Shown here: positions 1,018 through 18,053 of the stretch, in pieces
How positions within the stretch are numbered: position 1 is the stretch's first letter
How the letters are laid out: each line of letters opens with the position of its first letter
NCBI GenBank assembly: GCA_963846315.1
Contig: CAWJVM010000007.1
Span: 24,288-88,287, forward strand
Direction of reading: 5' to 3'
From: an uncultured Gammaproteobacteria bacterium
GTDB lineage: Bacteria > Pseudomonadota > Gammaproteobacteria > Steroidobacterales > Steroidobacteraceae
Length of the DNA stretch: 64,000 bases
Translations under genes and position numbers: made by a program
The notes under the pieces: model-generated
Databases searched by the model: none
The model's input: only the letters and a program-made list of their open reading frames with translations
What the model was told of the DNA's origin: nothing

Positions 1018-3195
1018 TCATGGTTGTTTCACTTCCTCGGGTCGGAAGACGATCTCGGTCATAACGGTCGCCTCGATGTCTGGATCGGTGGCCGAGAGCG
1101 GCTTGAAGCGCCAGCGCCGAACCGCGTCGAGCGCTGCCTTGTCGAACACCGCAGCCGGGTTCGAAGTCACGACCGTCGCCGACTTGACCTTGCCGTCCGC
1201 GGCGACAGTGATGCGGACTCGAACGTCGCCGCGGACGCCTTTCTTCAACGCGCCCGGCGGGTACTCCGGCGAGACGTACCGTGTGCGCTGGATTTCGGGC
1301 GGCGGCCCCTGCTTCGTCACGGGCGTCGCGCGCGCCGCCGCGATTGCACGCTCGAGCATGTCCACGTCGGCGAGGCTGAGCCCGAGTCGCCGGGCGGCGG
1401 CCGTATTCGCCTGCGCCGCATCGAGGTTGCGGTCAAGCAGCGCTTTTCGCCCACTTTCCAGCAACGCGTCGGACAAGGCCCGGCTGCTCGCGACGACTGC
1501 GCTGCCGGACGGATCCTCGGCGCGCAGCGCGTTCAGGTAAGCGACTGCGCTGTCCTGGGATGGTTCGAGCAGGCGTCCGTCACGGATGCGATCCTGCACC
1601 AGTTGGGCAAGGCGCGCGGACGCCGTGTTGTCCGGCTGCGCCGCGGCGGCAGGTGGCGCGACGCGCGTCGCGGCGGCCAGTCGCGTGGGGCTGACTCCGA
1701 GTTCACGTGCTTCCGCGACCCAGCGCTCCAGATCATCTCGCCGCGCCTGGGCCGCGGCGTCGTGAATCTTGAGCAGGTAGGCCTGCTGCAGCTCCGCTGT
1801 CGCGGAATCCGCCAGCCGCCTCGGGTCCGAAGGTACCTTGCGCAATTGCGCGAGGTAGGTCTTCGCGCTGTCGTTGGGTGGATCAACCAGCGATCCCTCG
1901 CGAATTCGCCTCGTGACGAGTTGCGCCAGCACCTGCGCGCGGGCATCGCCTTGCCGGCGAGCGATCACGTCGCGCCAGTGCGCGGCGACCGGCGCAGGCA
2001 ACGTGCCGAGCTGCGAACCCTGCTGCAGCAACTGGTTGGCTCGATCGACATTTCCGGCCTCGAGGGCCGCCGCAATCTGCGCTTCCGTCACCTTGGCGTC
2101 GATCTGGATCAAGCCGGGATCGCCCGGGCGGATGAACTTGAGCTGGGCGAGCGTGCCTGCGGCGTCGTTGATCCTTCGCTGCGCCAATTCGGACTGCAAC
2201 CGCTCGTCGAGCAGGGCGCCAATTCGCTGCATGCCTTCCTTTGCTTCGTCGTTCGCGGGATCCTGTGTGAGCACGGCGCGGAAATAGGCGAGGGCATTGT
2301 CGCCCTCCGGTTCCGTGTAGTGACGGGCAGCCAAGGCAATGCGCGCCTTGTCGAGCAGTTCGTCGCTCGAACCGGCCGGCACGGGAGCCGCTGCTCTTGT
2401 CGAAGGCAGGGATTGGGAATCCACCTTCTGCGATGCCGAAGCAGCGGCAGGGGTCACGCGCGCGTCCGGACTCTGCGAGCGCAGCGCAAACCACGCCAGG
2501 GCAGCCGCAACAAGCGCGACACCCGCGATGATGCCGGCCCAGGCGCGTGGGCGGCCACCGCCCGTCGCGCGCATCGCGGATGCTGTGGCCGGGGCCGTTG
2601 TCGCCACGTCGCCGCTGCGCTCCAGATCCGCGAGGGTGGATGACGATGCCGCCAACTCGATTGTCGGTGCTGCAACGATCGGTGCTGGGACGCTGGCGAT
2701 GGAATGCGCGACCACGGTGTATCGAGCAAGGGCTTCACCGCTCGCGCCTTCGAGGACAGCCATCGTCTGGCCGGTCTCGATCGGAATGGGCAGGATCGCG
2801 AAGGTGGCCGATCCCCTGATGGAACTCGAGACGCTGGCGCTGTCTTCCGCCGGCGCCAGCACGATGACGATGCAGGTGCCGTCCGGCGACTGGAGCCGCG
2901 CCACGGTCTCGGCAAGGACCGTGTGCCCACGCGCATCGAGCAGCACCACGCACGGTTGCAGCGGCCGGATGAATTCGCTTGCTGCATCGACCGATTCGAC
3001 GTGCCGGATCATGGACTCGCCGTCCAGTGCCAGGCCGATCTGTTCAAGCAGCGAGTCGTCGTCCGTCAGGGCGATGAATTCCACGCGCGGCGGGTGCGCA
3101 GTTCTTGACTTGCCGGCCGGCACGGGAGCGGGTCGCACAGGAGCGGGCGCAGGTATTGCGGACAACGAAACGTTCCTCCAGCTGACGCGAGCCAC
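1018..3195 (-). CDS. TonB C-terminal-domain protein with N-terminal CheY-like segment, one TM helix and long helical-repeat periplasmic region
   Basis: 725-aa ORF. The C-terminus fits the TonB_C pattern (YPPGALKKGVRGDVRVRITVAADGKVKSATVVTSNPAAVFDKAALDAVRRWRFKP). TM helix WAGIIAGVALVAAALAWFAL. N-terminus VEFIALTDDD...VVLLDARG resembles a receiver fold. The middle is an Ala/Arg/Leu-rich TPR/Sel1-like repeat region. Confidence 0.75.
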   Translation of the reverse strand: MARVSWRNVSLSAIPAPAPVRPAPVPAGKSRTAHPPRVEFIALTDDDSLLEQIGLALDGESMIRHVESVDAASEFIRPLQPCVVLLDARGHTVLAETVARLQSPDGTCIVIVLAPAEDSASVSSSIRGSATFAILPIPIETGQTMAVLEGASGEALARYTVVAHSIASVPAPIVAAPTIELAASSSTLADLERSGDVATTAPATASAMRATGGGRPRAWAGIIAGVALVAAALAWFALRSQSPDARVTPAAASASQKVDSQSLPSTRAAAPVPAGSSDELLDKARIALAARHYTEPEGDNALAYFRAVLTQDPANDEAKEGMQRIGALLDERLQSELAQRRINDAAGTLAQLKFIRPGDPGLIQIDAKVTEAQIAAALEAGNVDRANQLLQQGSQLGTLPAPVAAHWRDVIARRQGDARAQVLAQLVTRRIREGSLVDPPNDSAKTYLAQLRKVPSDPRRLADSATAELQQAYLLKIHDAAAQARRDDLERWVAEARELGVSPTRLAAATRVAPPAAAAQPDNTASARLAQLVQDRIRDGRLLEPSQDSAVAYLNALRAEDPSGSAVVASSRALSDALLESGRKALLDRNLDAAQANTAAARRLGLSLADVDMLERAIAAARATPVTKQGPPPEIQRTRYVSPEYPPGALKKGVRGDVRVRITVAADGKVKSATVVTSNPAAVFDKAALDAVRRWRFKPLSATDPDIEATVMTEIVFRPEEVKQP

Positions 3196-3482
3196 GGCGC
3201 CTGATTCGATGGCAATTGCTCGGCGAAGTGTAAATAGGACTCACTCGCCAACCTTGTGCCACGTCACAGAATCGGAAAAGGATCTCGCGCTTCCGTCTTG
3301 CCAAGGCGCGTGCGGCCCGATCGAGACGGTGGGCGAGCCGCGTTATGTCGAGCCAACGAGTGGGGACATTTCTGCTTGGCAGGAATGTGGGCATCTGCAG
3401 TTTGGCTTCACGAGGGAAGTGCGCTTAATGTTCAGCCCAAGCGGGCAGGCGTCCGCCCTGGTGACTGCGGCCGGGCGATCGT

Positions 3483-4400
3483 TCAGCGCGGCCTGATCCG
3501 GTCCGCGATGATCGAGCCGTCCGTGGCCACTCGGCCGCGCACTTCGACGTAGTCACCTGGTGCCGGGGATTTGTCGATGCGCGTGCCGCCGGAGACCCCG
3601 AGCGTCAACCCGTCGAGTCGCCAGCGACCGGTCAGTTCGCCATGCAGCCGGACCTCGGCACCTGCGGGAACAGGCGCCGGCTGACCCTCGGCATCACGCG
3701 CACCCTGGCGGATCCATTCGACGATGAGCTTGATGTCATCGTCGGGCAGGTACGGCGGTCCGTCGAACGGCATGCGGGGCTGGGCCTGGCCACGCACACG
3801 TCGCACCAGTTCGCTGGCTTCGGGGTGTCCAGGCACCACCCGAACTCGATCGGCAATTGACAGCGTCGCCTCGTACGACGTCAGGCGGTAGCCTTCCGGG
3901 GCCGGTCCCATGAGACCGCGCTCGGCGTGGCACTTGGCGCAGCGCGTGGCGAGAATCGGCGCGACGTGCAGGTAGGTGACCGCTTCGCCCGGGCCCGGTC
4001 GTCGCGGCGCAGCGGGCTTCGTCGCGGCGGCACGCGACTCCGGGCCTGCCGCCAGGCCGGTTGCGATCCAGCGCTCGAACCGGGTGATCTCATCGTCGGC
4101 GAGAAACGGTGGGCCGGTCATCGGCATGCGCGGCTGGCTCGTACCGCGGAGACGCCGGATGAGTTCGCTATCCGCTGCATTGCCGGTCTTGACGATCGGA
4201 CCGTTACGACTGCCGGCGAGCAAACCCTCGAGGCTGTCGAGCCGAAGTCCGAGTGGAGCTCCGTCACCTTGATGGCACATCACGCATCTGGACGACAGGA
4301 TCGGTGCCAGATCCGCATAGGTCACGTCCTGCGCCCGAACGGACGTCGAGCAACAAATAGCGGCCCAAGCGGTGATGATCCAAACCGACTTAGTCGTCAT
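3483..4400 (-). CDS. secreted dihaem c-type cytochrome-domain protein
   Basis: 305-aa ORF with a signal peptide (MTTKSVWIITAWAAICCSTSVRA). Two CxxCH motifs (CVMCH, CAKCH) sit in two internally repeated modules (...LRGxxQPRMPxxGPPxLxDDxI...), reminiscent of planctomycete-type cytochrome c domains. C-terminal beta-rich tail. Confidence 0.7.
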   Translation of the reverse strand: MTTKSVWIITAWAAICCSTSVRAQDVTYADLAPILSSRCVMCHQGDGAPLGLRLDSLEGLLAGSRNGPIVKTGNAADSELIRRLRGTSQPRMPMTGPPFLADDEITRFERWIATGLAAGPESRAAATKPAAPRRPGPGEAVTYLHVAPILATRCAKCHAERGLMGPAPEGYRLTSYEATLSIADRVRVVPGHPEASELVRRVRGQAQPRMPFDGPPYLPDDDIKLIVEWIRQGARDAEGQPAPVPAGAEVRLHGELTGRWRLDGLTLGVSGGTRIDKSPAPGDYVEVRGRVATDGSIIADRIRPR

Positions 4401-4700
4401 GGTCGCCCTCGATCGAATGTTAGCTCATCGGCGCCGCTGCGCCTGCCGGTGCGTTGATCAGGAGCAATGCACGGGCGACACTATTGTCAGGCGTGTCACA
4501 AGCGGTGGCGTGAATCGCAGCCGCCCTCTTTGCGAAATCCGAAGTCTGTGTCGACGCGTTCAGCAAGACGCGGGTGCCCTGGCGTTGTCGCGGCAATGGT
4601 TGTTGCTCCCGCCGCAATGATTACAGTGTTCTGGACCCATTTCGTCTAGTGATCGCCGACGTTCTTACGCTTGCAATGCCCGCATCGAGTTATCGAAAGC

Positions 4701-4729
4701 GGTGCGCATAAATGTATAGCAAGTGTCGC
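4701..4729 (+). other. degenerate dif-like junction 1 (XerC-type arm + TGTATA core, no XerD arm)
   Basis: GGTGCGCATAA-A-TGTATA-GCAAGTGTCGC. The left arm is identical to the E. coli dif XerC arm as recalled, with one extra A before the core. The right arm is unrelated to a XerD arm. Confidence 0.6.
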
Positions 4730-4838
4730 GAAGGCCCACCGACAATGTATAAAAGACAAGCGGATAGGGCGCTCTCCCGAGCAGGCAATGTGTCATGAGT
4801 CACTTATTTAGCCTGTCGAATATTCCAGACTGGCTGTC

Positions 4839-5921
4839 ATGAGTCGCGACTTGCCATCGTTAACCGGCCTCCGTGGAATCGCAGCGCTGTGGGTGCTTGG
4901 CTATCACACGATGCTTGCTCTTCAGCGCTTAGGTTCTCCGATCGCAATTCCGGTTGGAGTATTCGGTCGCGCCGGCTACCTTGGAGTTGACGTCTTCTTT
5001 GTCCTATCGGGATTCGTCATTGCCTACAACTATGCAGACGGCCGGAAATGGACACCGGCCTCATACGGGTCGTTTCTTTGGAAGCGACTCGCGCGAATCT
5101 ATCCCGTACACCTGGCGGGCCTCGCACTCGTCGGCGTCTTCCTGCTGTGCATGGCCATAGGCACAAAAGTCGCGTCGCACACACTTCCCCAGTTGGTTGC
5201 TTCGATCGCGCTTGTCCAAGCTTGGAGCGTTCCGGTGCGAGCGACGTGGAACGTCGTATCCTGGTCGGTAAGCCTTGAGTGGGCTGCGTATCTCACCTTT
5301 CCGGCTATCGCTCTCGCAGCAGGAAGACTCCGATCGACGGGAGTAATCGTGGGTGTGGTGGCGGTACTGTTCCTTTCCCTGTTTCTCGTGGCAACGTCCG
5401 TTCCTTTCCAGGGGACGATGGCATATGGCGTATTTCGGGTCGCCGCCGAATTCACGTCGGGCGTCTTGCTGTTCCGTCTCTGGACCCTGCGGCACGACGC
5501 TGTCACATCATGCGTTGCAATTGCGGCACTAGCGACTCTTGTCTTTGGAGGGAGCGCACTCGACTATTTAAGCGGCGAGCACGCCGCGTTCATATACATC
5601 ACATTCTTCTCCGCCGTCGTGGTCTATAGCCTGGCTTGCGCACCGTCGGCCTTCAATGGCTTGGTGCTCCAGCACCTCGGCAGGATGTCGTACTCGCTCT
5701 ATATCGTGCACGACGTGGTCCTGAACTTCGCCAAAATGACTGTCGCGAAATACGCCTTCGCGCCTGCGTGGATACTAGCTGGCAGTCTGTTCGCCATTGC
5801 GTTTGGGCATCTTTTTTACACTTATCTGGAAAAACCGGCGAGAACGCGGATGCTGAGCATCACAGAACGGTTCGTCAAAGGACGAAGCGCGTTGAGCAGG
5901 GGTACAACCGCTACTGAATAG
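4839..5921 (+). CDS. acyltransferase family 3 (OafA/Oac-like O-acyltransferase), polytopic membrane protein
   Basis: 360-aa ORF. The N-terminus LTGLRGIAALWVLGYHT...GVDVFFVLSGFVIAY is the typical acyltransferase_3 signature. About 10 hydrophobic helices. Lower-GC codon usage than neighbouring genes. Confidence 0.85.
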   Translation: MSRDLPSLTGLRGIAALWVLGYHTMLALQRLGSPIAIPVGVFGRAGYLGVDVFFVLSGFVIAYNYADGRKWTPASYGSFLWKRLARIYPVHLAGLALVGVFLLCMAIGTKVASHTLPQLVASIALVQAWSVPVRATWNVVSWSVSLEWAAYLTFPAIALAAGRLRSTGVIVGVVAVLFLSLFLVATSVPFQGTMAYGVFRVAAEFTSGVLLFRLWTLRHDAVTSCVAIAALATLVFGGSALDYLSGEHAAFIYITFFSAVVVYSLACAPSAFNGLVLQHLGRMSYSLYIVHDVVLNFAKMTVAKYAFAPAWILAGSLFAIAFGHLFYTYLEKPARTRMLSITERFVKGRSALSRGTTATE

Positions 5922-6086
5922 GTCAAAGCAATTAAGACGTTGCGGCCGAAGCAGCGCGGCTCAAATTCGCCGCTGCAACCCTAATCGGTCAGGCGCTCTT
6001 CGAGATGGGTCACTTGGAGATGTCGGCTGCGGCCACCAGCCCAGTCTATAAAGTCTTTCGAGCACATGACTTGTTAGAGACGCGCC

Positions 6087-6171
6087 GTGGCGACGGTCGT
6101 GCCGGCGCTCTTCGATCCCGCTGTCGTACCGGCGGCGAGGGCGTTGTACGGCACAAAGGTGGCTCCGGTCC
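6087..6171 (+). repeat. conserved non-coding blocks, copy A (paralogous to 9449-9641)
   Basis: GTGGCGACGGTCGTGCCGG (6087-6105), GCTGTCGTACC (6120-6130) and CAAAGGTGGCTCCGGTCC (6154-6171) recur in the same order at 9449-9467, 9483-9493 and 9624-9641. Each copy ends about 25 nt before a dif-type site. Confidence 0.7.
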
Positions 6172-6198
6172 CTCAAGGAACTGGAGCACGTCACACCG

Positions 6199-6226
6199 GG
6201 CACGCATAATGTATAGCAAGCACAAT
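6199..6226 (+). other. degenerate dif-like junction 2
   Basis: GGCACGCATAA-TGTATA-GCAAGCACAAT. XerC-type arm and identical core. The right arm begins GCAAG, as at junctions 1 and 3. Confidence 0.6.
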
Positions 6227-6320
6227 TCTTGCCGCTGAAAGATCAGCAATCGAATCAGTAACTTGCGCCAGTCTCGCCGATGTGCAAACTGGAGGTACGC
6301 GCCAATCAGGAGACGCACGG

Positions 6321-6869
6321 ATGGCGGACTCGCCAGGCACCGACCCCGCTTTGGAACAACACATCGCTGAAGTTCACCGGCGAGTTGGCCGCAATGTCAT
6401 CCGAGTGCAGCGGCTAGAAGGCGCGCTCAAAGCACTCGTTCCGTACCTAGACATTCAAGGGGCAGCGCACTGTCTGGATGGCCTCGATGAACGTGCAGCA
6501 CGGACTGCGAATCAGACGCTGGGGCAGTTGATCAGGTCTTTTCGGAATTCGTTTACGTCCGAAAGTCTGGAGATGCGTCGCGAGTTGGAAACCATCCTTG
6601 CAGGCCGCAATGAGCTTATTCACCAATTTCACAAGACCTATGGTCCATTGTGGAGGGATCACAACGGTCGGGGCGCGATTGTCGCGAAATTGGATGCGCA
6701 GTTTGAACAGGTCACCAAATTTGAGCAGGTCCTGCTCGATTTAATAGTGCAATTGCTTCGGATACTCCGGGACTGCCAAGATTCGGATTCCGAGGCATTC
6801 CAAGCGTTCGAAGAAACTTACCGCCAAGTGGAATCCGCCCTTCGCCCCCATATGGCGAACGACGCCTAA
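6321..6869 (+). CDS. hypothetical helical protein (IMEX 2 cargo)
   Basis: ORF track 6282..6869. I prefer ATG 6321, preceded by AGGAGA 8 nt upstream. Predicted all-helical and charged (…LEGALKALVPYLD…ILAGRNELIHQFHK…), with no motif I recognise. The stop TAA (6867-6869) lies inside the XerC-like arm of junction 3. Confidence 0.55.
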   Translation: MADSPGTDPALEQHIAEVHRRVGRNVIRVQRLEGALKALVPYLDIQGAAHCLDGLDERAARTANQTLGQLIRSFRNSFTSESLEMRRELETILAGRNELIHQFHKTYGPLWRDHNGRGAIVAKLDAQFEQVTKFEQVLLDLIVQLLRILRDCQDSDSEAFQAFEETYRQVESALRPHMANDA

Positions 6870-6886
6870 TGTATAGCAAGCCTTCT
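6859..6886 (+). other. degenerate dif-like junction 3
   Basis: ACGACGCCTAA-TGTATA-GCAAGCCTTCT. Weaker XerC-type arm, identical core, GCAAG right arm. Confidence 0.5.
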
Positions 6887-7022
6887 TTTTGAGACTCCCA
6901 AACAATAAGCACAATCAAAGAGTTGCAAGATATTGCTCAGTGTGCAAACTGCACGATGCCGGGGGGCTGCAGCGATGTTCCCGTACCCTCGCCGTGACCG
7001 AGGCAAACAGCCGGAATGTTGA

Positions 7023-7496
7023 TTGGAACCGCAGGCTTCAGAAGAAGGGGCTACACAGGTCCTTGTAGTGGCTGAACAAAACAAAGTCATCGAAGGCAAA
7101 CAATTCGACTCGCCGCTTGTATTGCCTGGCGCCAGTAACGTCGAGCCACAGCGCTACATTGCTGAGATGCCGTATGAACTCACGAAGTATGAGTTCGTGG
7201 TCTTACGGCGACGGGGGACGTCGCATCTGCTTTTCACAAGCGCTGTGAGCGCCACAGTTGGCATCGCCTTAATGCTCACAGGCAAGTTTGTTTCCGGCGT
7301 GATTACACAACAGCAGCCCGATTGGCATAAATGGGAACTGGTGACGCTGGGGTGCGGAATCGTGCTGAGTATTGTCTTGACGTTTGTTCGGTCGCGCGAT
7401 GACAAGGAGCGAGAGCAATTAGAAGAGGTGATCAATAGCCATTTTCAGGCCAACAAGCCTCGCCGCGTGCACGTCACCGCAGGATCCGACCAATGA
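7023..7496 (+). CDS. hypothetical membrane protein (2 TM), IMEX 3 cargo
   Basis: 157-aa ORF starting at TTG; the internal start MPYELTKY is possible. Two hydrophobic helices (LLFTSAVSATVGIALMLTGKFV; LVTLGCGIVLSIVLTFV) followed by a charged tail. The stop overlaps the next start (ATGA at 7493-7496). Confidence 0.5.
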   Translation: MEPQASEEGATQVLVVAEQNKVIEGKQFDSPLVLPGASNVEPQRYIAEMPYELTKYEFVVLRRRGTSHLLFTSAVSATVGIALMLTGKFVSGVITQQQPDWHKWELVTLGCGIVLSIVLTFVRSRDDKEREQLEEVINSHFQANKPRRVHVTAGSDQ

Positions 7497-7960
7497 GACT
7501 CGACAGTCTTCCACCGCGGTTTGTCCCTTATAACCGCATGAAGATCAGGACCAACACGCTTGAGAACGCTACCGCGATCTTTTCGGTCAATGGGTCTATC
7601 CCGTTGCTGATTGGGCAGGGTTTTCCTCCCAGGGTCTGGCTATCACTACCAGCCAACCGCGAAGCGGATCAGTGGGTTCCATTGATCAAAGAGAACTTTT
7701 CATCGCATCCCGATGTAAAGGTACAGGCTCTTGGAAAAAGAGTCCTGGTTCAGGCCAAGGGACAATCGGTCATACATGTAATGCAGAACGACGGTGGCGA
7801 CCTGATGTTCTTGAAACTGGATTTGCGTCCTTTCGGACTAGACGTTTTCACGGACGACAACATGCTGCACGTGATGGGCAACACCTTGTCGGGAAACACG
7901 TTCAAAAATGTGAGCGTCGCAATTGGTATCGGTCGACCAGGCGTTGGGAATAAACCCTAA
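7493..7960 (+). CDS. hypothetical soluble protein, IMEX 3 cargo
   Basis: 155-aa ORF translationally coupled to 7023..7496. No recognisable motif. The 3' end overlaps the convergent rep stop. Confidence 0.5.
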   Translation: MRLDSLPPRFVPYNRMKIRTNTLENATAIFSVNGSIPLLIGQGFPPRVWLSLPANREADQWVPLIKENFSSHPDVKVQALGKRVLVQAKGQSVIHVMQNDGGDLMFLKLDLRPFGLDVFTDDNMLHVMGNTLSGNTFKNVSVAIGIGRPGVGNKP

Positions 7961-9075
7961 CTGAGAGTCCGTGCCGGCTGGGCGTACGCATCCCGCCGAG
8001 TCAATGTCACCCGACAATAGCCAGGTCCCCATTGAACGCGGCGTTCCCACTCTGACTCGATGTGCTCTCCGGTTGATCGAACAACCCAACTGCCACCGGC
8101 AGCCTTTCGTACAACATCCCCTTCGGATGTTCGATTGCGGATGTAAGCGGGTAGGGCACGCCACTGTGCGAGTCGCTTGGCGGAGTCGAAGCCACCGACG
8201 CCAAAGAGCCGCGCGCCTTTCGGCAGAGAACGTCCCTGGTCGCCTTTGCTAGCGTACTTGGTGATGTAAGCCGGGCCGCAGCGGGCCTTCTCGATGCGAG
8301 TGAGTCCATGCGGCCACAGGGCCTTGCGTTGGCGACCCATGGCAGTGTCGGGCTTCGGCAGTCGAAGGCCGGACGGAACCCACCAGAGCACGTGGTAATG
8401 CGGAGCGCCGCGCATCTGCATCTCAAGAACCCACTCGTATGCATAGACGATTTTGCGTGCCTCGAGCCAGCCCCGCATGCGCTTCACGTATTCGGTGATC
8501 TGGCGTGGCGAGTACTCGACGCCCGGCGCGTAGGTGAGCGTCACCATGATGCATTGGCAGTTGACGCCGGAATCCGCGAACAATGAGCGAACCGTATCCG
8601 CATGGTGACCAACGACGAGCTTCAACTTTCTAAGCCGGGCCGACTGCGCGAGTTCGCGGGTCGCGTCGTAATGACTTGTTGCAGTGAACGAGATGGATTG
8701 AATCGCGGACGTGTCACTTGTTTGTTTTCCGACAAGCCCAGAGGGGAGGGCATTGTGATCGGCGGAGCAGGGGCCGTCTCCAACGGCCTCCCTGCCCTCG
8801 CCGGCAGTGATGGTCTGCAGACTACTAGTCTCGGAACCATCACCGGCCACAGCAACGCTCTCCGTAGCCGACGGCGATTCAAGGCCTACCGGTCCCGGAT
8901 GGTTTAGCGTGGACGCGGCCGATATCGGCGTAACGTTGGGTTCAGGTTCCGCGCTCGTACAGTGGCCCCGGCTGCCGGATCGCCCCGGAGGGGACGCGCC
9001 TTCGGCGCTCGACGCCTGCGGCGTCCTAAGAGGTGCCTCCGGCCCCGCAGCACGGCTCTCCGTCGCCGGGGTCAT
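7957..9075 (-). CDS. rolling-circle replication initiator (HUH endonuclease, phiX174 gpA / phage CRI-like)
   Basis: 372-aa ORF. HUH motif in GAPHYHVLWWV. Catalytic Tyr motif AYITKYASKG (compare phiX174 A: YVAKYVNK). Motif-1-like IMVTLTYAP. Disordered Ser/Ala/Pro-rich N-terminus. The start overlaps the upstream gene stop (ATGA at 9072-9075). Confidence 0.8.
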   Translation of the reverse strand: MTPATESRAAGPEAPLRTPQASSAEGASPPGRSGSRGHCTSAEPEPNVTPISAASTLNHPGPVGLESPSATESVAVAGDGSETSSLQTITAGEGREAVGDGPCSADHNALPSGLVGKQTSDTSAIQSISFTATSHYDATRELAQSARLRKLKLVVGHHADTVRSLFADSGVNCQCIMVTLTYAPGVEYSPRQITEYVKRMRGWLEARKIVYAYEWVLEMQMRGAPHYHVLWWVPSGLRLPKPDTAMGRQRKALWPHGLTRIEKARCGPAYITKYASKGDQGRSLPKGARLFGVGGFDSAKRLAQWRALPAYIRNRTSEGDVVRKAAGGSWVVRSTGEHIESEWERRVQWGPGYCRVTLTRRDAYAQPARTLS

Positions 9076-9413
9076 GCGGACCTTAGGATGCGGCAGTATT
9101 CCTCAAGGTCCCGTGGGTCTTTGCTCGCCAGGTCTCGCGCCAGCTGAACGATCAGCCAGTGTGCGCGCAGCTGTCTGGGACCGAACTCGTGGCCATCTGG
9201 GTCCACCAGATGATCGCGGCGGATAGCGAATCCTTTCCATAGGTCGTCAAGGACGCGGCCGTCACGATAAAGAGCAAACAGACGCATCGCCTGACGGGAC
9301 GGCTTACGGGCCCCGGACTTGTAGAGACGAGCCGTCGCAACGGAAACGCCGCACCAACGCGCAATCAGCTGGTCGGGGTAAACGTAGAAGATTGATAACG
9401 GTCGAGCAGGCAC
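9072..9413 (-). CDS. DUF3653-like phage protein, candidate XafT-type Xer activation factor
   Basis: Track ORF 9072..9626. The conserved-looking part starts about LSIFYVYPDQLIARWCGVSVATARLYKSGARKPSRQAMRLFAL (HTH-like), followed by ...WKGFAIRRDHLVDPDGHEFGPRQLRAHWL. I place the start at GTG 9413, with GAGGAA 9 nt upstream. The upstream part of the track ORF overlaps non-coding repeat blocks. Family assignment is from memory of DUF3653. Confidence 0.55.
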   Translation of the reverse strand: MPARPLSIFYVYPDQLIARWCGVSVATARLYKSGARKPSRQAMRLFALYRDGRVLDDLWKGFAIRRDHLVDPDGHEFGPRQLRAHWLIVQLARDLASKDPRDLEEYCRILRSA

Positions 9414-9448
9414 AGCAAGACATTCCTCGACTGAGGAACCTTGCCCGC

Positions 9449-9653
9449 GTGGCGACGGTCGTGCCGGTGTTTCACGAAACCTGCTGTCGTACCAGGCTGG
9501 TGCGCTGTTGCCAGCGCCCATTTCCGACAGACCGGACCTTGAGCCACGCTGCTCGGTAGCGCCGTCCGAATCCTTCCGATGCGGCCTACGAGACGAAGCA
9601 TAAGACGGCGAAGGCGGTCGAGGCAAAGGTGGCTCCGGTCCACTTGGGACCGG
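9449..9653 (+). repeat. conserved non-coding blocks, copy B, ending in a perfect hairpin next to dif
   Basis: The same three blocks as 6087-6171, separated here by an extra insertion of roughly 100 nt. Hairpin CCGGTCC-ACTTG-GGACCGG at 9635-9653, 11 nt before dif. Confidence 0.7.
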
Positions 9654-9664
9654 GCCATCCTATT

Positions 9665-9692
9665 GGTACGCATAATGTATATTATGGTAAAT
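9665..9692 (+). other. dif: chromosomal dif site (XerC arm - core - XerD arm)
   Basis: GGTACGCATAA-TGTATA-TTATGGTAAAT matches the E. coli dif 28-mer as recalled (GGTGCGCATAA-TGTATA-TTATGTTAAAT) at 26 of 28 positions. Confidence 0.85.
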
Positions 9693-10038
9693 CACCTAAT
9701 GAAATTGATAGCTGGAGCCTGATGTCGCTGTGGCTGTCCTGCATTTTTGGGAACCGCCCTTCGTCATTTTGGGAACGTGCCGCTCCAGGCTGACCGACCG
9801 AGGGTTTCGTCGACTACATCTTCAGGAGTGCGCGTACGGGTCTCAGGAACTGCTAATTGGATGGGCTCACCCTATCGAGACCTGAGTCGCTGAATGCAAA
9901 CAAACTCACACCGCTTTACGTTGTCGCCGCTTTCGCTCGAGGCCGTCGATTGCCTTGAGCCGGCCGTGCGTTGGCGCCTGTGTCGCCCGATTCATCGGTC
10001 ACGGAGCTTTTCCTGGGAACCGTGCCGAACGGGCGTTG

Positions 10039-10054
10039 TGACATACTGACATAC
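10039..10054 (+). promoter_or_regulatory. tandem 8-bp direct repeat, candidate VapB operator
   Basis: TGACATAC-TGACATAC lies immediately upstream of the vapB start (10063/10075). Confidence 0.3.
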
Positions 10055-10062
10055 ACTCCGGT

Positions 10063-10320
10063 ATGCTTCGACATATGAGAACCACGGTCCGTCTCGACGA
10101 GGGTCTTCTGGAGCAGGCGCGCCGCGAGGCTGCCCGGCGCGGCGTCACGCTGACGGCACTGATCGAACAGGGCCTGCGGATGGCGCTCCGTCGACCACGA
10201 CCCTCGTCCCGCGCGGAACGGGTTCGGCTGCCCGTGAGCCGCGCCACGGGCGGCGTACTGCCGGGGATCGATCTGAACGATTCCGCCGATCTGCTCGACC
10301 GGATGGACGAGCGTAGTTGA
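10063..10320 (+). CDS. vapB: type II antitoxin, VapB-like
   Basis: 85 aa. (MLRH)MRTTVRLDEGLLEQARREAARRGVTLTALIEQGLRMAL is a typical RHH/VapB-type N-terminus. The stop overlaps the toxin start (TTGA). Confidence 0.8.
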   Translation: MLRHMRTTVRLDEGLLEQARREAARRGVTLTALIEQGLRMALRRPRPSSRAERVRLPVSRATGGVLPGIDLNDSADLLDRMDERS

Positions 10321-10742
10321 TCCTTCCGGACGTCAACGTCCTGATCTACGCGTACCGGGTCGACTCGCCGGACCATTCACGGTACAAGGCGTGGCTCGAA
10401 GACGTCGTGAACGGTCCCGCGACGTTCGGCCTGGCGCCGAACGTACTCTCCGCGGTTGTCCGCGTCTGCACGCACCCGCGGATCTTCGCCGTCCCGAGCG
10501 ATTCGGCCGAGGTGTTCGAGTACGCCAATGCGCTGATCGGCCAGCCCAATGCGACGCTTGTGCAGCCTGGCGAGCGACACTGGTCGCTGTTCCAGCAGAT
10601 CTGCCGCGATTCGCGCGCGACCGGCAATCTCGTTCCCGACGCCTGGAATGCAGCGCTCGCCATCGAGGCGGGCTGCGAATGGATCACGACCGACCGGGAC
10701 TACACGCGCTTTGCGGGACTGAAGTGGCGCACGCCGTTCTGA
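10317..10742 (+). CDS. vapC: type II toxin, PIN-domain ribonuclease VapC
   Basis: 141 aa with a TTG start. LPDVNVLIYA...NLVPDAWNAALAIEAGCEWITTDRDYTRF carries the conserved acidic PIN residues (D5, E, D, D). Confidence 0.85.
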   Translation: MILPDVNVLIYAYRVDSPDHSRYKAWLEDVVNGPATFGLAPNVLSAVVRVCTHPRIFAVPSDSAEVFEYANALIGQPNATLVQPGERHWSLFQQICRDSRATGNLVPDAWNAALAIEAGCEWITTDRDYTRFAGLKWRTPF

Positions 10743-10851
10743 CGACGTAAGTCTCGCCAGACTTCTTGGCTGACCGAGGATCAGCTAGCCGACTGGATTG
10801 CTGCCCACTCAACGGCGCAGGGCTGAGACGGACCGGCCCCGATCCCCGCCT

Positions 10852-11217
10852 TCACTCTTTAGGATTCGGCCCGAACCGGTTCGCACCCGGCTGGCTGTCC
10901 AGCACCATGAACACCAGCACCACGAGAGCCCCGACGAGGGGAACAAACTCAAGCAGCACCCACCAGCCGCTGCGGTCGGTGTCGTGCAGTCGGCGCACGG
11001 TGACCGCCAGGGTCGGGATGAACGTCGCCAGCACGAACAGCCCGCTGAGCAAGCCGATTCCCGCCTCCTCGTTGAGCGTGCCGGTGACCCCGTCCACGAT
11101 CGCGAGTGCGACGATCGCAAGGACGTAAAACAGCACGAAGTACCAGTACTCGCTTCGTCGCGCCCGCCCTTCGAACGTTGCGTACTTTTTCGTCAGCGCT
11201 TCCAGGAACCATTTCAT
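10852..11217 (-). CDS. DUF805 family inner-membrane protein (YhaH/YhaI-like)
   Basis: MKWFLEALTKKYATFEGRARRSEYWYFVLF...VTVRRLHDTDRSGWW is the DUF805 signature. Start moved to ATG 11217 (GGGAGA upstream); the track ORF extends to 11331. Confidence 0.85.
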   Translation of the reverse strand: MKWFLEALTKKYATFEGRARRSEYWYFVLFYVLAIVALAIVDGVTGTLNEEAGIGLLSGLFVLATFIPTLAVTVRRLHDTDRSGWWVLLEFVPLVGALVVLVFMVLDSQPGANRFGPNPKE

Positions 11218-11475
11218 CGCCACCGTCTCCCTGCTTTTGAGATCCCCGCAACCTACCCCCGACCCCTCACTGGGACATCCGGAGTTACCCTCAGGACCCA
11301 CCGGCCAGGGTGCTCCTGACATCGCGCGCATCGAAATTCACACGACCACGGACGCGGTGCCGACGCATGAGAAATGGCGATGACCACTGTCGCCAAACAG
11401 AAACACTTTCGTCACGCGCTCGACCTTGCTGTCGTTGGATACTCCATTCAGGAACCGCCGAGGAGCGCGCGTCCA

Positions 11476-11688
11476 ATGCGCTGGAACGAAACGATGAAAG
11501 CCGCCGCACTCGTCATCGCAGCCGAGCGCACGACCCCACCCGATCGGAGCGTCGACTACGCGGCGCACAGCTGGAACGCGTACGACGTCTGGCTGTCGCG
11601 GGTCCGGCCGCCACACGACCTCTCTGACCAGATCTCAATGAGTGACTTGGTGACAAAGCGGCGCCAGGACACCGTGCTGCGCGACTAA
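11476..11688 (+). CDS. small hypothetical protein
   Basis: In-frame ATG 11476 with AGGAG 10 nt upstream. G/C-rich third positions. No recognisable motif. Confidence 0.3.
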   Translation: MRWNETMKAAALVIAAERTTPPDRSVDYAAHSWNAYDVWLSRVRPPHDLSDQISMSDLVTKRRQDTVLRD

Positions 11689-11734
11689 TTTCCCCGTTCG
11701 TGAACCCGCCGCCGCCCCGATCGCCGCAAGGCGC

Positions 11735-12205
11735 CTAGAGACGCGAGAGCGCTTTCTTCGCGATCGCCTTGGCCATGTCCATGGACTTGGGTCCGGTCGG
11801 CAAGGTCACCCGCACGATCACGGCACCTTTCTTCGCGTACAGGTCCACCCAACCATTAGTGTCGGGATTGGCGAAAGCGTCGGCGCCAAGTTCCGGCAGT
11901 GACACCGGCGTCTTGCCGCCGTTGCGGGTCTTCCATGCCTTGAGGTCCCCGTCGTGCAGGGAGACGTCGACGAAGCTCGGGCCGTTGACGGGTTCGAAGG
12001 AACAGGTGACCTCTCCCGACGCCGGGTCGGTCGCCTTGGGCGTCCCCGCAAGCTTGCCGACAATCGCCTGCATCTCGGCGGCGGTGACGAGACTGCAGGG
12101 ATTGAGGACGGCCGCCTCGGCCTGCACGAAAAGCAACGCGCCGCCCGCGAAGACGGCCGTGGCGCGCAGCAACGAGTTCAGCGAACGCAAAGCGGATGAG
12201 TTCAT
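11735..12205 (-). CDS. secreted hypothetical protein
   Basis: Start at MNSSALRSLNSLLRATAVFAGGALLFVQAEA (signal peptide). Two Cys residues. No recognised family. Confidence 0.6.
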   Translation of the reverse strand: MNSSALRSLNSLLRATAVFAGGALLFVQAEAAVLNPCSLVTAAEMQAIVGKLAGTPKATDPASGEVTCSFEPVNGPSFVDVSLHDGDLKAWKTRNGGKTPVSLPELGADAFANPDTNGWVDLYAKKGAVIVRVTLPTGPKSMDMAKAIAKKALSRL

Positions 12206-12530
12206 CGCGACGTCTCCCCGTGAGAGTTGTTCGGTGGCATTCACACGATACACGGCTGGGTCCTGGCGGCAGCCTTCAATTGCGTCGGCCCGCCATCCTC
12301 ACTGCCGGCACGTCGACGGCAGGTACCTCGGTGCCACGCTGGTGTATTGCGTGTGCGCACGGATCGCAGGCGTGACGCCGTCCGGCACCGCCGCCAGGCC
12401 GCATTTCGCACAGAACATTCTTCACTCCCTGCGCTGTTCCAAAGACCCCGACGGTTGGGTAAGGGTAGACTTTCAAGGTGCACGATTTTCAAGCACTGTA
12501 GCCGCAGACGATACTGAGCCGAGGACCGCG

Positions 12531-12950
12531 ATGACCGACAAGTCCGACCACGATACGCGCTGGCGACTCGTGCGCGATGTCGTGGTGTTCCAGATCAAGC
12601 TGGGCATGGAGGCGGTGCTGGACATCACGCTGATCCCGGTGTCACTTGCAGCCGCCGGGCTGGATCTGCTGCTGGGGAACTGGCGACGGCCAAAATGGTT
12701 CCACGCGGTGCTGCGGTTCGGCGAGCGCTGCGAACACCGGATCAACCTGTGGGGCGTCCCCACGCCCGGCGACGCTGCGCCTCCATCAGAGGCCGATGCG
12801 CTCATGCGCAGCATCGAAGCCCTGATCCGCCGTCCGGGAACTGGACCGGACAAGGTGCGTGAACTCAGGCGCTGGGCCGCCACGAAGCTTGCGCCGAGTG
12901 GCGACAGCGACCTGCAACCTCCTGACCGTCGTAACGATCTGCCGGGCTGA
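12531..12950 (+). CDS. small membrane protein, hypothetical
   Basis: ATG 12531 (MTDKSDHDTRWRLVRDVVVFQIKLGMEAVLDITLIPVSLAAAGLDLLL...). It is the 3' part of the 393-aa track ORF, whose upstream part is antisense shadow of 11735..12205. Confidence 0.55.
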   Translation: MTDKSDHDTRWRLVRDVVVFQIKLGMEAVLDITLIPVSLAAAGLDLLLGNWRRPKWFHAVLRFGERCEHRINLWGVPTPGDAAPPSEADALMRSIEALIRRPGTGPDKVRELRRWAATKLAPSGDSDLQPPDRRNDLPG

Positions 12951-12982
12951 GGCGGGTCGGGGCGGCTGGATATCGGTGATCG

Positions 12983-13008
12983 AAAAAAAAGCCCGGCGGG
13001 TGCCGGGC
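12983..13008 (-). terminator. rho-independent terminator (for 13037..13603; the hairpin may also serve the convergent + gene)
   Basis: GCCCGGC-GGGT-GCCGGGC stem-loop (12991-13008), followed on the minus strand by T8 (A-tract 12983-12990). Sits between convergent genes. Confidence 0.75.
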
Positions 13009-13036
13009 TTGATGCCGCCTCGACCGTGGCCGGCGA

Positions 13037-13603
13037 CTATTTCATCAGCGTGACGTGTCCCGTGTAGTTCTTCCGGGTCTGACCATCCGCAACCGTACAG
13101 GACGTCTCGACCACGTCCGTGAACTCGTAGCGCTGTCCTCGCGCAACAACGACGGCGTGCGGGAAATGCGTGCCCGTGGCGCAGGCACCGGCCTTGCTCG
13201 CCGACGAACTCGGAGAGTCGCGGGTCACCACCGTGAACGTCGCGACGTCGCCCACCTTTGGCGGCGCCACGGCAGAGGCCGGCTGTCCGTCAGCAGTTGC
13301 CTCGGGGGCGGTACGCTTGCCGGAGGCCATGCCGGTGCTCACATCGCGGGGTGCACGGGCCTTCATCACCGACAGGTCCTGCACGTTGACCTTGCCAGCG
13401 CCGGCACCACTGCTCGTGGCCGCCGCGCCTGCGTTGCTGGCACCCCATGAAAATGACTCAATCTCGATACTCTGCGGGGCCGCCCCTTCCTTGCCCTGTC
13501 CCTTGACTGGATCAAGTTGCAGGAGGTAATCGGAGGCAGCCAAGACCGGCGCCGTCACCATCAGCAGTGACGAGACGGCGGCGATAATGCGAAGCGTGCT
13601 CAT
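13037..13603 (-). CDS. secreted Hcp-like (T6SS tube-fold-like) protein with signal peptide
   Basis: Start ATG 13603 (MSTLRIIAAVSSLLMVTAPVLAA). The mature N-terminus SDYLLQLDPVKGQGKEG...IEIESFSWGASN mimics the Hcp N-terminus (…FLKLDGIKGES…I.V.SFSWG). KVNVQDLSVMK and ...YEFTDVVETS also resemble Hcp strands. Confidence 0.55.
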   Translation of the reverse strand: MSTLRIIAAVSSLLMVTAPVLAASDYLLQLDPVKGQGKEGAAPQSIEIESFSWGASNAGAAATSSGAGAGKVNVQDLSVMKARAPRDVSTGMASGKRTAPEATADGQPASAVAPPKVGDVATFTVVTRDSPSSSASKAGACATGTHFPHAVVVARGQRYEFTDVVETSCTVADGQTRKNYTGHVTLMK

Positions 13604-13739
13604 GGACTGTCTCTCACCTGGAGTTTGGGAGCCTGAGTCTCCCACCGTCGGAGCGCGAAAAATCGTGACGTGGTCTGCCCTTTAGAAATCAAGGCGCGAA
13701 AATCCCACGGGAATCCTCGTCCGGCCTGCCCGCTCCAGC

Positions 13740-14177
13740 CTACGACTCGGCGACCTTCGATAAGCTGACCACGTTGCTCGGCATCGGCACGCTCGCGGTT
13801 GCACTCGGCTCGACCAGGCACCCCATGGAGCCATCCACGCGTGCGCCGCAGGTCATCTGCAGGGTCCGATAGCGGATCGCGCCCGTGATGCGCGCGTTCG
13901 CCTGCAACTCGATGAAATTGTGAACTTCGAGGTCCCCGCGGATCGTGCCGTTGACGACTGCGTCGTGCACCCGGACGTCGCCCTCGATGAGTCCGTGCTC
14001 GCTCAGCACCAGCAGCCCCTGCGCATCGGGTTTGGAGAGGATGTTACCGACGACATGACCGTCGATTCGCACGCCGTCCGTGACGATGACGTCACCTGCA
14101 ATCTCGACGCCGGCCGCGATCAGGCTCGACAACCGTGATACGTCGATGGAAGGCTGGTCGGTCTTTCTGCGAAACAT
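13740..14177 (-). CDS. bactofilin (polymer-forming cytoskeletal protein, CcmA-like)
   Basis: 145 aa. Repeated beta-helix pattern: IAAGVEIAGDVIVTDGVRIDGHVVGNI...IEGDVRVHDAVVNGTIRGDLEV...ARITGAIRY. Confidence 0.85.
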   Translation of the reverse strand: MFRRKTDQPSIDVSRLSSLIAAGVEIAGDVIVTDGVRIDGHVVGNILSKPDAQGLLVLSEHGLIEGDVRVHDAVVNGTIRGDLEVHNFIELQANARITGAIRYRTLQMTCGARVDGSMGCLVEPSATASVPMPSNVVSLSKVAES

Positions 14178-14221
14178 GAAGTGGTCCTCGATTGATCGGC
14201 ATCGATGTCGAACCCGAACGG

Positions 14222-14593
14222 TCAGTGCGTCCTGCCCGTCCGAGCACTTTGCGCATTGAAAAACTCAAGTCGGCTCGCGAGCTGAGTCTTCTCCTCATTC
14301 AGTTCCGCCACCTGACGAACGAGTGCGGCACGCGTCGAGTGTTCCAGGCTCAGCTCGGTCCGGGCACGCGCAAGATCCGCTCGTAGCGTTGCGTTCTCCA
14401 GCCGTAGCCCTGCCTGCTCATCCTCGGACTCGCGGCTGTCCACGTACAGCTGCCTGCCGATCAAGATCAGCAGGATGGCCAGCGCAGTCGCAGTGGCCAG
14501 CAGCAGCGCTTTGGTTAAGCGACGGTCGTTGTGAAACTCGAGGCGAGCGGTCGCGAGCCGCGTCGTTCGCGATCGCCTGCTGGGAAGCGTCAA
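14222..14593 (-). CDS. membrane-anchored coiled-coil protein
   Basis: 123 aa. TM helix (ALLLATATALAILLILIG) followed by a heptad-like segment. Its start overlaps the stop of the upstream M23 gene (4-nt overlap at 14590-14593). Confidence 0.6.
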   Translation of the reverse strand: MTLPSRRSRTTRLATARLEFHNDRRLTKALLLATATALAILLILIGRQLYVDSRESEDEQAGLRLENATLRADLARARTELSLEHSTRAALVRQVAELNEEKTQLASRLEFFNAQSARTGRTH

Positions 14594-15630: not shown

Positions 15631-15718
15631 GCTAATATGTGATGCGGTCCGCAGCTTTTGACGCTGGCACTTCCTGCCGTTACCCTGCCCTTCCGCTACC
15701 GATGAGGACTACGACTTC

Positions 15719-15859
15719 ATGGCCAGACCCCCGAATTACTCACAGCAGAAACAGCAGCGCGAACAGGCCGCCAGGAAAAAGCGTGACGAAAAGCAGCAGC
15801 GTCGTCAGGAAAAGAAAGAAGAAGCCCCGCCTGCTCCCGGCCCCACCGACGGCAGGTGA
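15719..15859 (+). CDS. small Lys/Arg/Gln/Glu-rich protein (46 aa)
   Basis: Own reading: ATG 15719 preceded by GAGGA. Product MARPPNYSQQKQQREQAARKKRDEKQQRRQEKKEEAPPAPGPTDGR. Below the ORF-track size cut-off. Confidence 0.35.
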   Translation: MARPPNYSQQKQQREQAARKKRDEKQQRRQEKKEEAPPAPGPTDGR

Positions 15860-15902
15860 CACTGGCCGCCCTCGCTGGATCCGATGATCGCACCGTGACC
15901 GC

Positions 15903-18010: not shown

Positions 18011-18053
18011 ACCTCGCTGCGAGAGTCCGGGGTGAAGGTCTCGGCGCCGTCCG

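Follow-up and report, generated by a model that had tools for sequence, protein, structure and literature searches.

The 64-kb stretch of DNA analysed here, referred to as the window throughout, is part of contig CAWJVM010000007.1 of an uncultured gammaproteobacterium of the Steroidobacteraceae and carries a compact genetic element at positions 6859-9692. The element constitutes one unit of 2806 bp that reaches from a dif-like junction to a canonical 28-bp dif site and contains a gene for an HUH-type rolling-circle initiator (Rep), a gene for an XafT-like protein with a DUF3653 domain, a structured non-coding region and a two-gene cargo cassette. It has no recombinase of its own, as its four open reading frames (ORFs) match only the Rep and DUF3653 families and neither an integrase nor a resolvase in Pfam, PHROG and NCBIfam. 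The guanine-plus-cytosine (GC) content amounts to 52-60% across 4.7-9.7 kb compared to about 65% in the surrounding DNA; the GC skew over the window is too weak to confirm a location at the chromosome terminus. The unit is a Xer-exploiting integrative mobile element (IMEX) that resides beside a functional-looking dif.

Both ends of the unit are Xer sites. The left junction (attL; 6859-6886, plus strand) reads ACGACGCCTAA-TGTATA-GCAAGCCTTCT and is composed of a XerC-arm-like sequence ACGACGCCTAA (6859-6869), the central TGTATA (6870-6875) and an element-derived, degenerate XerD-side arm GCAAGCCTTCT (6876-6886). The right end (attR; 9665-9692, plus strand) is a functional-looking dif, GGTACGCATAA-TGTATA-TTATGGTAAAT, whose XerC arm stems from the element and whose XerD arm is chromosomal. 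This dif occurs once in the window where 0 matches are expected by chance, and the 13-nt core is found three times exactly and five times with at most two mismatches, compared to an expectation of 0.68. Joining the two ends of the element yields an attP of the form GGTACGCATAA-TGTATA-GCAAGCCTTCT, in which the XerC arm and the central region are identical to dif, while the XerD-side arm GCAAGCCTTCT agrees with the host arm TTATGGTAAAT at only three of 11 positions (A3, G5 and T11) and deviates at the other eight. TGTATA is the central region at all junctions, and this identity with dif is in line with a TLC-type rather than a VGJ-type site. The attP of the Vibrio cholerae satellite phage TLCPhi likewise deviates from the XerD arm of dif at eight positions, and its activation factor XafT drives recombination with almost any XerD arm in which either the T at position 1 or the G at position 5 of dif is retained (PMC9226527). 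The G at position 5 is kept in every junction we found whose XerD-side arm begins with GCAAG, i.e. three in the window, one each in the related loci L005, L010, L012, L175 and L178, two in L184 and three in L179.

The Rep gene (7957-9075, minus strand) encodes a protein of 372 residues belonging to the inovirus pII family. Its translation contains CIMVTLTYAPG, GAPHYHVLWWVP and AYITKYASKGD, which comprise the motifs TLTY, HYHV and YxxKYxxK, and in an alignment of 30 sequences (Rep and 29 homologues) TLTY, HYHV and the residues Y270, K273, Y274 and K277 are invariant. Rep matches the Pfam family PF23343 (REP_ORF2-G2P) with an E-value of 9e-26 and 90.5 bits (cut-off 27.8) as well as the replication initiation family phrog_2969 (E 6e-31). 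An earlier note on this DNA, made by reading the sequence, had described a complete HUH motif set, and by these measures the set is indeed present, in an intact gene. The closest characterised relatives are the pII proteins of the Xanthomonas phages Cf1c, XacF1, phiLf, Xf109, Xf409 and phiXv2, which share 37-38% identity over residues 104-344. A Pfam scan at E ≤ 1 returned PF23343 together with weak RepSA, Helitron and Rep_1 matches and no Cri-family match, from which it follows that the element is not a relative of TLCPhi itself.

The core of Rep is under purifying selection, with codon position 3 taking 575 of 914 substitutions. In contrast, the substitutions within the first 330 nt of the gene lack codon periodicity (35/58/51), and this part differs from locus L007 by 6.7% while the core differs by 30%. 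The far lower divergence of the 5' part in some comparisons points to mosaic recombination. The corresponding codons 1-110 (8746-9075) are rich in proline, serine and alanine, are open in all close homologues and are 3-7% diverged where the core is about 30% diverged; hereby, either the peptide is unconstrained or the DNA bears cis-acting sites. Within this 5' part lies an imperfect palindrome or hairpin (8807-8843, strand unassigned), an inverted repeat that is conserved in L007, L011, L175 and L010 and that may represent a cis-acting site, i.e. an origin or a packaging signal. The packaging signal of phiLf is likewise located inside the 5' part of gII.

The second backbone gene, dif-proximal and coupled to Rep, occupies 9072-9413 on the minus strand, starts with GTG and encodes a protein of 113 residues with a helix-turn-helix (HTH) and a DUF3653 domain, containing WKGFAIRRDHLVDPDGHEFGPRQL. 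The plus strand reads tcat at 9072-9075, which corresponds to ATGA on the minus strand, so that the stop codon of the DUF3653 gene overlaps the ATG of Rep; this coupling is conserved in L007, L009, L011 and L178. The protein matches Pfam DUF3653 with an E-value of 1.3e-08 and 35.3 bits, above the cut-off of 22.4, and the NCBIfam model NF040522 (VC1465 family Xer recombination activation factor, XafT being VC1465) with an E-value of 9.3e-11. The latter alignment extends from residue 15 to 98 of the protein and from position 13 to 97 of the 111-position model, and thus spans both the HTH and the DUF3653 part, an architecture that corresponds to the one published for XafT (PMC6744903). Judged from these alignments, the 113-residue protein is a homologue of XafT across both domains, not a curated member of the VC1465 family. 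An AlphaFold (AF2) model built from 56 homologues has a mean predicted local distance difference test score (pLDDT) of 91 and shows three short helices (14-50), then a beta hairpin (63-70) and a pair of long helices. Fold searches with this model gave no significant match, the best hits in the PDB and among viral structures being nearly all HTH proteins of the XRE/Cro type with local alignments of 1-3 Å. Among solved structures the protein has no sequence relative, and a protein search of phage records with the DUF3653 gene found nothing.

Across six related loci that were aligned, the 113-residue gene accumulated 61, 55 and 191 substitutions at codon positions 1, 2 and 3, respectively, indicating purifying selection. 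An extended reading frame of 184 residues starting from a TTG at 9626 was rejected, as the additional 251 nt upstream are without codon periodicity and most homologues measure 112-117 residues. Since periodicity is confined to the DNA downstream of 9413, the earlier note had the length of 113 residues right. It had also been correct in proposing a DUF3653 domain, to be examined by profile search and structure prediction, and an ATGA coupling to Rep. Its description of the gene as abutting dif holds insofar as this is the dif-proximal gene; physically, the two are separated by 251 nt of conserved non-coding DNA.

This non-coding stretch (9414-9664, minus strand) is structured and better conserved than the coding DNA. 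Substitutions at the three codon positions (54/51/65) reveal no periodicity in any frame. Compared to L007 and L011 it shows 0 and 3 substitutions, respectively, where the DUF3653 gene shows 18 and 62. As single-stranded DNA the region folds better than 200 of 200 shuffled sequences (z = -4.1), and compensatory changes are present in 12 of the 79 predicted pairs, while column shuffles yield 5.0 on average (0 of 500 reach 12) and controls slid along the alignment yield 1-4. Within the region, three neighbouring hairpins (about 9459-9519) show 100% pairing. As the covariation alignment comprises seven sequences, the evidence for a structured cis-acting region is moderate. The region is putatively an origin, packaging and promoter region. 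An Rfam scan of 4600-9800 matched no family, and a sigma-70 promoter scan, uninformative in such GC-rich DNA, found no promoter.

Mobility of the element is best illustrated by a second copy. Locus L184, which was found via a cargo protein, contains a 97.3% identical partial copy of window positions 6868-8075, the contig stopping inside Rep. Hereby, homology starts precisely at AA|TGTATA of the junction, and the DNA further to the left is unrelated. A homology edge at the Xer crossover, in conjunction with unrelated left flanks, provides direct comparative evidence of insertion through Xer-site recombination. The L184 chromosome is syntenic with that of L178 and not with the window, and the window and L178 are about 70% identical in the 140 nt beside dif. 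The two copies also show that the element moved recently from one chromosome to another. Two further loci, L012 and L173, are 95-96% identical to the window from dif to the DUF3653 gene with unrelated flanks, and in L005 a neighbouring gene is 92% identical, the DUF3653 gene only 70%. A nucleotide search of phage records left the DNA of the element unmatched.

The subfamily to which the DUF3653 gene belongs is present in 25 loci representing about 16 contexts, in which the gene is usually followed by a coupled Rep and never by Zot. Where the DNA preceding the gene is intact, a dif site is found a short way upstream of it, except in L010, L011, L181 and the truncated L182 and L183. In all left junctions detected in these loci the XerD-side arm starts with GCAAG, and the units measure 2.3-4.7 kb. 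Conservation among them is limited to the backbone, which extends from dif to the end of Rep; the cargo differs every time. Bounded units of 2.6 kb (L005), 3.0 kb (L178), 4.7 kb (L175, with K+-channel-like and FAH-like cargo genes) and 4.3 kb (L012, with an insertion sequence (IS) inside Rep) were delineated, as well as a 2.3-kb unit with a GCAAG arm in L013 that has a truncated Rep, a ParE/Phd pair and no DUF3653 gene. The element is a member of a family of mini-elements of uncultured sediment Gammaproteobacteria.

Some loci of this family show insertions and rearrangements. In L012 a 2-kb insertion with an IstB-like ATPase (2774-4803) splits Rep, and the DUF3653 gene is frameshifted. The 2849-bp L011 was considered as a free circle; this was rejected, since its termini do not overlap and an IS transposase is located at the dif end, where an rve-type transposase gene (1-990) ends exactly at the expected dif position. 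L179, part of a 1.37-Mb metagenome contig, displays at 9615-18130 a dif followed by a DUF3653 gene without Rep, with GCAAG-type junctions at 14267, 15466 and 18130 and a less clear site at 13492. Its first unit contains an ArsR-glyoxalase-ArsC-MIP operon that is duplicated just outside dif on the chromosome side.

Beyond this subfamily, the wider Rep family includes complete inoviruses, with Zot encoded 3-4 kb downstream in about 30 of 79 genome loci, and other units, 2.3-3.7 kb in size, that are bounded by dif and have no Zot; these were seen in Alteromonas, Catenovulum, Neiella, Allochromatium and Rhodanobacter. In the Rhodanobacter unit, a Pfam DUF3653 gene adjoins dif. Arrays of 2.3-3.2-kb Rep units at dif are seen in Alteromonadales (L020 4449-10922, which is Alteromonas flava, and L021, L022 and L049); these units have no detectable DUF3653 gene and carry a small ribbon-helix-helix-like ORF upstream of Rep instead. 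In the Alteromonas loci L020 and L049 a conserved ORF of 72-80 residues adjoins the degenerate junction, and it could code for a different Xer accessory factor.

Two overlapping cargo ORFs on the plus strand take up the remaining 1.08 kb of the element, which separates Rep from the left junction. Cargo gene 1 (7023-7496) has a longest ORF of 157 residues with two hydrophobic segments that, by eye, resemble membrane helices; it has 16 homologues, those of 142-148 residues suggesting a GTG start at 7068, and matches nothing in Pfam, PHROG, NCBIfam or PADLOC. Cargo gene 2 (7493-7960, 155 residues) overlaps gene 1 by an ATGA, converges on Rep and belongs to phrog_12462 (E 1.3e-24), with no PADLOC or NCBIfam match; it is 29% identical to a frame of JBD68 gp30, the neighbour of gp31, which other records annotate as an integrase. 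The pair forms a conserved cassette (148 and 147 residues, 47-53% identity) that also occurs in L185-L188, cargo gene 2 being 53% identical to its transposon-borne partner in L185. There, the cassette is situated beside a resolvase gene and next to genes for a beta-lactamase and a LinB-like nucleotidyltransferase, between Tn3-family transposase genes. In one contig the cassette is found near BrxL, and cargo gene 2 alone occurs beside the integrase of JBD68-like Pseudomonas prophages and in Acinetobacter phages.

To the left of the element the window contains two older units, which together with it form a dif array. Unit U1 (4701-6226, plus strand) is bounded by site A (4701-4729), GGTGCGCATAA-aTGTATA-GCAAGTGTCGC, and site B (6199-6226), GGCACGCATAA-TGTATA-GCAAGCACAAT, and carries an acyltransferase gene (4839-5921; phrog_3333, O-acetyltransferase). 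Its right end (about 5930-6199) is a decayed remnant of the DUF3653 and non-coding region, to which exact repeats of 18 and 20 nt tie it (9624-9641 and 9448-9467, respectively). The oldest junction, site A, has an E. coli-like XerC arm GGTGCGCATAA, yet one extra base makes its spacer 7 nt long (ATGTATA), which should inactivate it as a Xer site and thereby fix the array on that side. Unit U2 (6199-6886, plus strand; 660 bp) contains a single ORF of 195 residues (6282-6869) without a family match in Pfam, PHROG, PADLOC or NCBIfam, whose stop codon is the TAA in the next junction's XerC arm. A comparable unit lies to the left of the partial copy in L184 (9073-9824): it measures, like U2, 0.66-0.72 kb, is bounded by GCAAG junctions and has one ORF of about 200 residues running into or through the next junction, with weak local similarity to the U2 ORF (48% over 31 residues, E 2e-5). 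The XerC arms at the junctions of these units are poor in both the window and L184 (6-7 of 11 positions), and the units may represent cassettes without a backbone or have arisen by recombination at pseudo-sites. In IMEX arrays each newcomer generates a new dif beside itself (PMC9226527), so that distance to the live dif reflects the order of arrival; the unit at 6859-9692, which adjoins it, is hence the youngest, as previously suggested.

On the chromosomal, XerD side of dif, at a distance of about 370 bp, a ribbon-helix-helix/PIN toxin-antitoxin pair of the VapBC-like type is encoded (10063-10742). PIN pairs are found beside or near dif in related genomes too, with MazE/PIN in L001-L004 and Phd/PIN in L007. 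A 92% identical chromosomal gene is located at 11708-12284 of the window and at 10514-11095 of L005, on opposite sides of dif, an arrangement that would agree with closely related genomes differing by an inversion around the terminus.

Morphogenesis genes were searched for in the window. An iterated Zot profile, which is positive in 107 of the 184 loci, detected no Zot, and pV, pVII, pIX, pVIII, pIII, pVI and pI of phiLf-UK found no match; the statement that coat, Zot-like and assembly genes are lacking is hereby confirmed, and a gene for a single-stranded-DNA-binding protein is missing from the window as well. The designation of the element as an intact TLC-type satellite needs qualification in both of its parts. 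It is intact in that Rep and the DUF3653 gene are full-length, while its excision is uncertain. It resembles TLC in its attachment site, its XafT homology and the lack of morphogenesis genes, but it is outside the TLC lineage, as the Rep family differs and the homology to XafT is distant. We regard the element as real and probably active, similar to TLCPhi in the way it works.

In the explanation we favour, the circular form of the element would carry the attP GGTACGCATAA-TGTATA-GCAAGCCTTCT, which the host recombinases XerC and XerD recombine with dif. As the sequence of the junctions and the comparison with the second copy show, this reaction inserts the element and restores a working dif on its right. 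The HTH-DUF3653 protein most likely recruits or activates XerD without FtsK, as in TLCPhi; homology and the type of site suggest this role, and such a factor is proposed because XerD is not expected to bind the degenerate arm alone. The coupled HUH Rep, with its intact motifs and purifying selection, would replicate the excised circle by the rolling-circle mode, for which the 251-nt structured region and the hairpin in the 5' part of Rep are candidate origin or packaging sites. The remainder of the element would be exchangeable cargo, here the two-gene cassette. As morphogenesis genes are lacking, spread from cell to cell would most likely proceed via a helper filamentous phage; packaging by a helper inovirus is the weakest inference in this scheme and its least supported step. 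Taken as a whole, we consider this explanation to be reasonably probable.

Several observations weigh against it. No helper inovirus is present within the window, and the phiLf packaging consensus GGN(A)CCGYG is absent from the element. Neither the DUF3653 subfamily nor the conserved non-coding motif has a relative among the viral contigs of IMG/VR; relatives of Rep are found there with 30-44% identity in inovirus-sized contigs of 4-8 kb. Public sequencing runs, in which 8-14% of the sampled words were present, contained related pieces of Rep and DUF3653 only, and neither a circular junction nor an empty site. With respect to the DUF3653 protein, the NF040522 score of 41.8 bits lies below the curated cut-off of 70, and each fold match to an HTH protein, taken singly, is weak (E ≥ 0.08 against the PDB). 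Moreover, relatives of XafT with other functions are known: PSB15, the DUF3653 protein of phiLf-UK, binds to the packaging signal, and integration does not depend on it (bioRxiv 10.1101/2024.03.19.585677), and XafV, a structural relative of XafT, stimulates XerC-first reactions only (bioRxiv 10.64898/2026.06.12.731946). Lastly, the XerC arms of the left junction and of the element itself agree at only 7 of 11 positions, because of which excision from this junction may be inefficient.

The helper step is where the most credible alternative departs. The element could be an integrative rolling-circle mini-plasmid or cargo shuttle that excises, relies on its own Rep for replication, uses the XafT-like factor to integrate at dif again and dispenses with a filamentous helper, with transfer by transformation, vesicles or mobilisation and dif serving as a cassette-collecting site. 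This would fit with the absence of a Zot-encoding phage within or adjoining any of the about 16 contexts of the DUF3653 subfamily, with the missing relatives in virus collections and the missing phiLf-type packaging signal, with the diversity of the cargo (acyltransferase, ParE/Phd, ars operon, K+-channel-like protein, a cassette shared with transposons) and with units that are entirely devoid of Rep (L179, L181-L183). Yet Rep belongs to the pII family of inoviruses, whose genome loci are complete Zot-encoding phages in the proportion given above, the conserved hairpin-rich region resembles the intergenic region of filamentous phages, and the known precedents of similar size (RS1, TLC and pDolos) are all packaged by inoviruses. 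We regard a mini-plasmid as possible but rather improbable.

The units with a GCAAG arm might also be viewed collectively as a cassette system at dif and not as phage satellites, an idea we put forward tentatively and hold to be doubtful. Hereby, a minimal autonomous backbone made up of the structured region, the XafT-like factor and Rep would activate Xer in trans, and a population of units of 0.7-4 kb lacking this backbone would be inserted and shuffled at dif. The cargo of these units includes toxin-antitoxin pairs, an acyltransferase, an ars operon and single ORFs. If true, the chromosome terminus would be an integron-like site of gene capture in environmental Gammaproteobacteria, and a family of this sort could be the kind of source from which TLCPhi obtained XafT.

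It is more clearly unlikely that the DUF3653 protein serves in packaging-signal binding or assembly, in the manner of PSB15, or acts as a XerC-first helper like XafV, and does not activate XerD, with the element integrating in the VGJ or Cf manner. With PSB15 of phiLf-UK only the 45-residue hairpin region aligns, at 29% identity (WKGFAI versus WAGFSF and DPDG versus TPEG), and Rep is closest to those of the Xanthomonas phages that encode PSB15. PSB15 is not needed for integration (bioRxiv 10.1101/2024.03.19.585677), and XafV has the fold of XafT and does not support TLC-type integration (bioRxiv 10.64898/2026.06.12.731946). However, the protein fuses HTH and DUF3653 as XafT does, whereas in PSB15 DUF3653 is N-terminal and a basic tail is present; the alignment to the XafT-family model covers both domains; a degenerate XerD arm along with a central region identical to dif is characteristic of the TLC and not of the VGJ type; and the element has neither a phiLf packaging consensus nor assembly genes that could be regulated. 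Finally, the element could be defunct, i.e. what is left of a full-length filamentous prophage whose structural genes were deleted and which now serves no function, as the decay of older array units (U1 retains fragments of the backbone only) and the damaged L012 and L011 might suggest. This is highly improbable given two full-length backbone genes under purifying selection, a compact architecture encountered again in many genomes, a partial copy in another chromosome that is 97% identical and whose boundary falls precisely on a Xer site, and a non-coding region that is better conserved than the genes.

The assumption that elements of this kind are undescribed outside well-studied pathogens, as made in the earlier note, was too strong. 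In 2019, Midonet et al. reported 179 DUF3653 proteins, most of them adjoining dif, in 51 species of beta- and gammaproteobacteria and concluded that TLC-like IMEXs are widespread (PMC6744903), and Shewanella harbours pDolos, a 2.9-kb rolling-circle satellite of an inovirus. A 2026 preprint, on the other hand, argues for XafT being a recent acquisition confined to V. cholerae, with no structural homologues elsewhere except XafV (bioRxiv 10.64898/2026.06.12.731946). In the literature we searched there is no description of a family that combines a GCAAG arm, a structured region, an HTH-DUF3653 protein, a pII-type Rep and variable cargo. Activation of XerD by a mobile element has been proven experimentally only for TLCPhi of pandemic V. 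cholerae; the present element is a second, very small system from a non-pathogen in which FtsK-independent Xer activation could be tested, and it illustrates that dif arrays with exchangeable cargo exist well beyond Vibrio, Xanthomonas and Neisseria.

Compared to the known systems, the element is most similar to TLCPhi in its organisation. Both integrate at dif via XerCD without an integrase of their own, use an attP with a canonical XerC arm and central region and a XerD arm deviating at 8 of 11 positions, place an HTH-DUF3653 gene next to attP, encode their own rolling-circle initiator and no morphogenesis genes, and regenerate a usable dif upon integration so that arrays can accumulate. They differ in that no nucleotide similarity was found between them, Rep is of the pII/PF23343 type and not Cri-like, the XerD-side arm begins with GCAAG and not with TAGA, the host is an uncultured gammaproteobacterium from freshwater sediment, and the DUF3653 protein falls short of the XafT-family cut-off by the margin given above. 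With 2.8 kb the element is also smaller than the TLC unit of about 4.7 kb. The Xanthomonas and Stenotrophomonas phages phiLf, Cf1c, XacF1 and Xf109 (Lophivirus) have the closest characterised Rep, integrate at dif and encode a DUF3653 protein; in contrast to the element, which is without structural genes, these are whole phages measuring 6-8 kb and equipped with pV, coat proteins and Zot. In PSB15, their DUF3653 protein, the domain is N-terminal, the C-terminal tail is basic and the HTH is missing, being encoded by a separate gene; PSB15 is located on the opposite strand and binds to the packaging signal, whereas in the protein studied here the HTH precedes DUF3653 and two helices follow according to the AF2 model.

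RS1, the satellite of CTXPhi, carries rstR, rstA, rstB and rstC and no DUF3653 gene. RS1 and the XafT-positive CTX-I inoviruses of Vibrio share with the element a small size or a position at dif with a terminal xafT, together with hypervariable cargo; CTX-type elements differ by a folded single-stranded attP recombined by XerC only, and CTX-I phages keep zot (PMC12715192). The satellite pDolos of the Shewanella inovirus Dolos is similar to the element in its size of about 2.9 kb, its Rep of about 360 residues accompanied by a few small genes, its lack of structural genes and its ability to carry cargo; it is not integrated and has neither a Xer site nor a DUF3653 gene, and its dependence on a helper has been demonstrated by experiment, whereas that of the element is presumed from its gene content (bioRxiv 10.1101/2023.11.28.569023).

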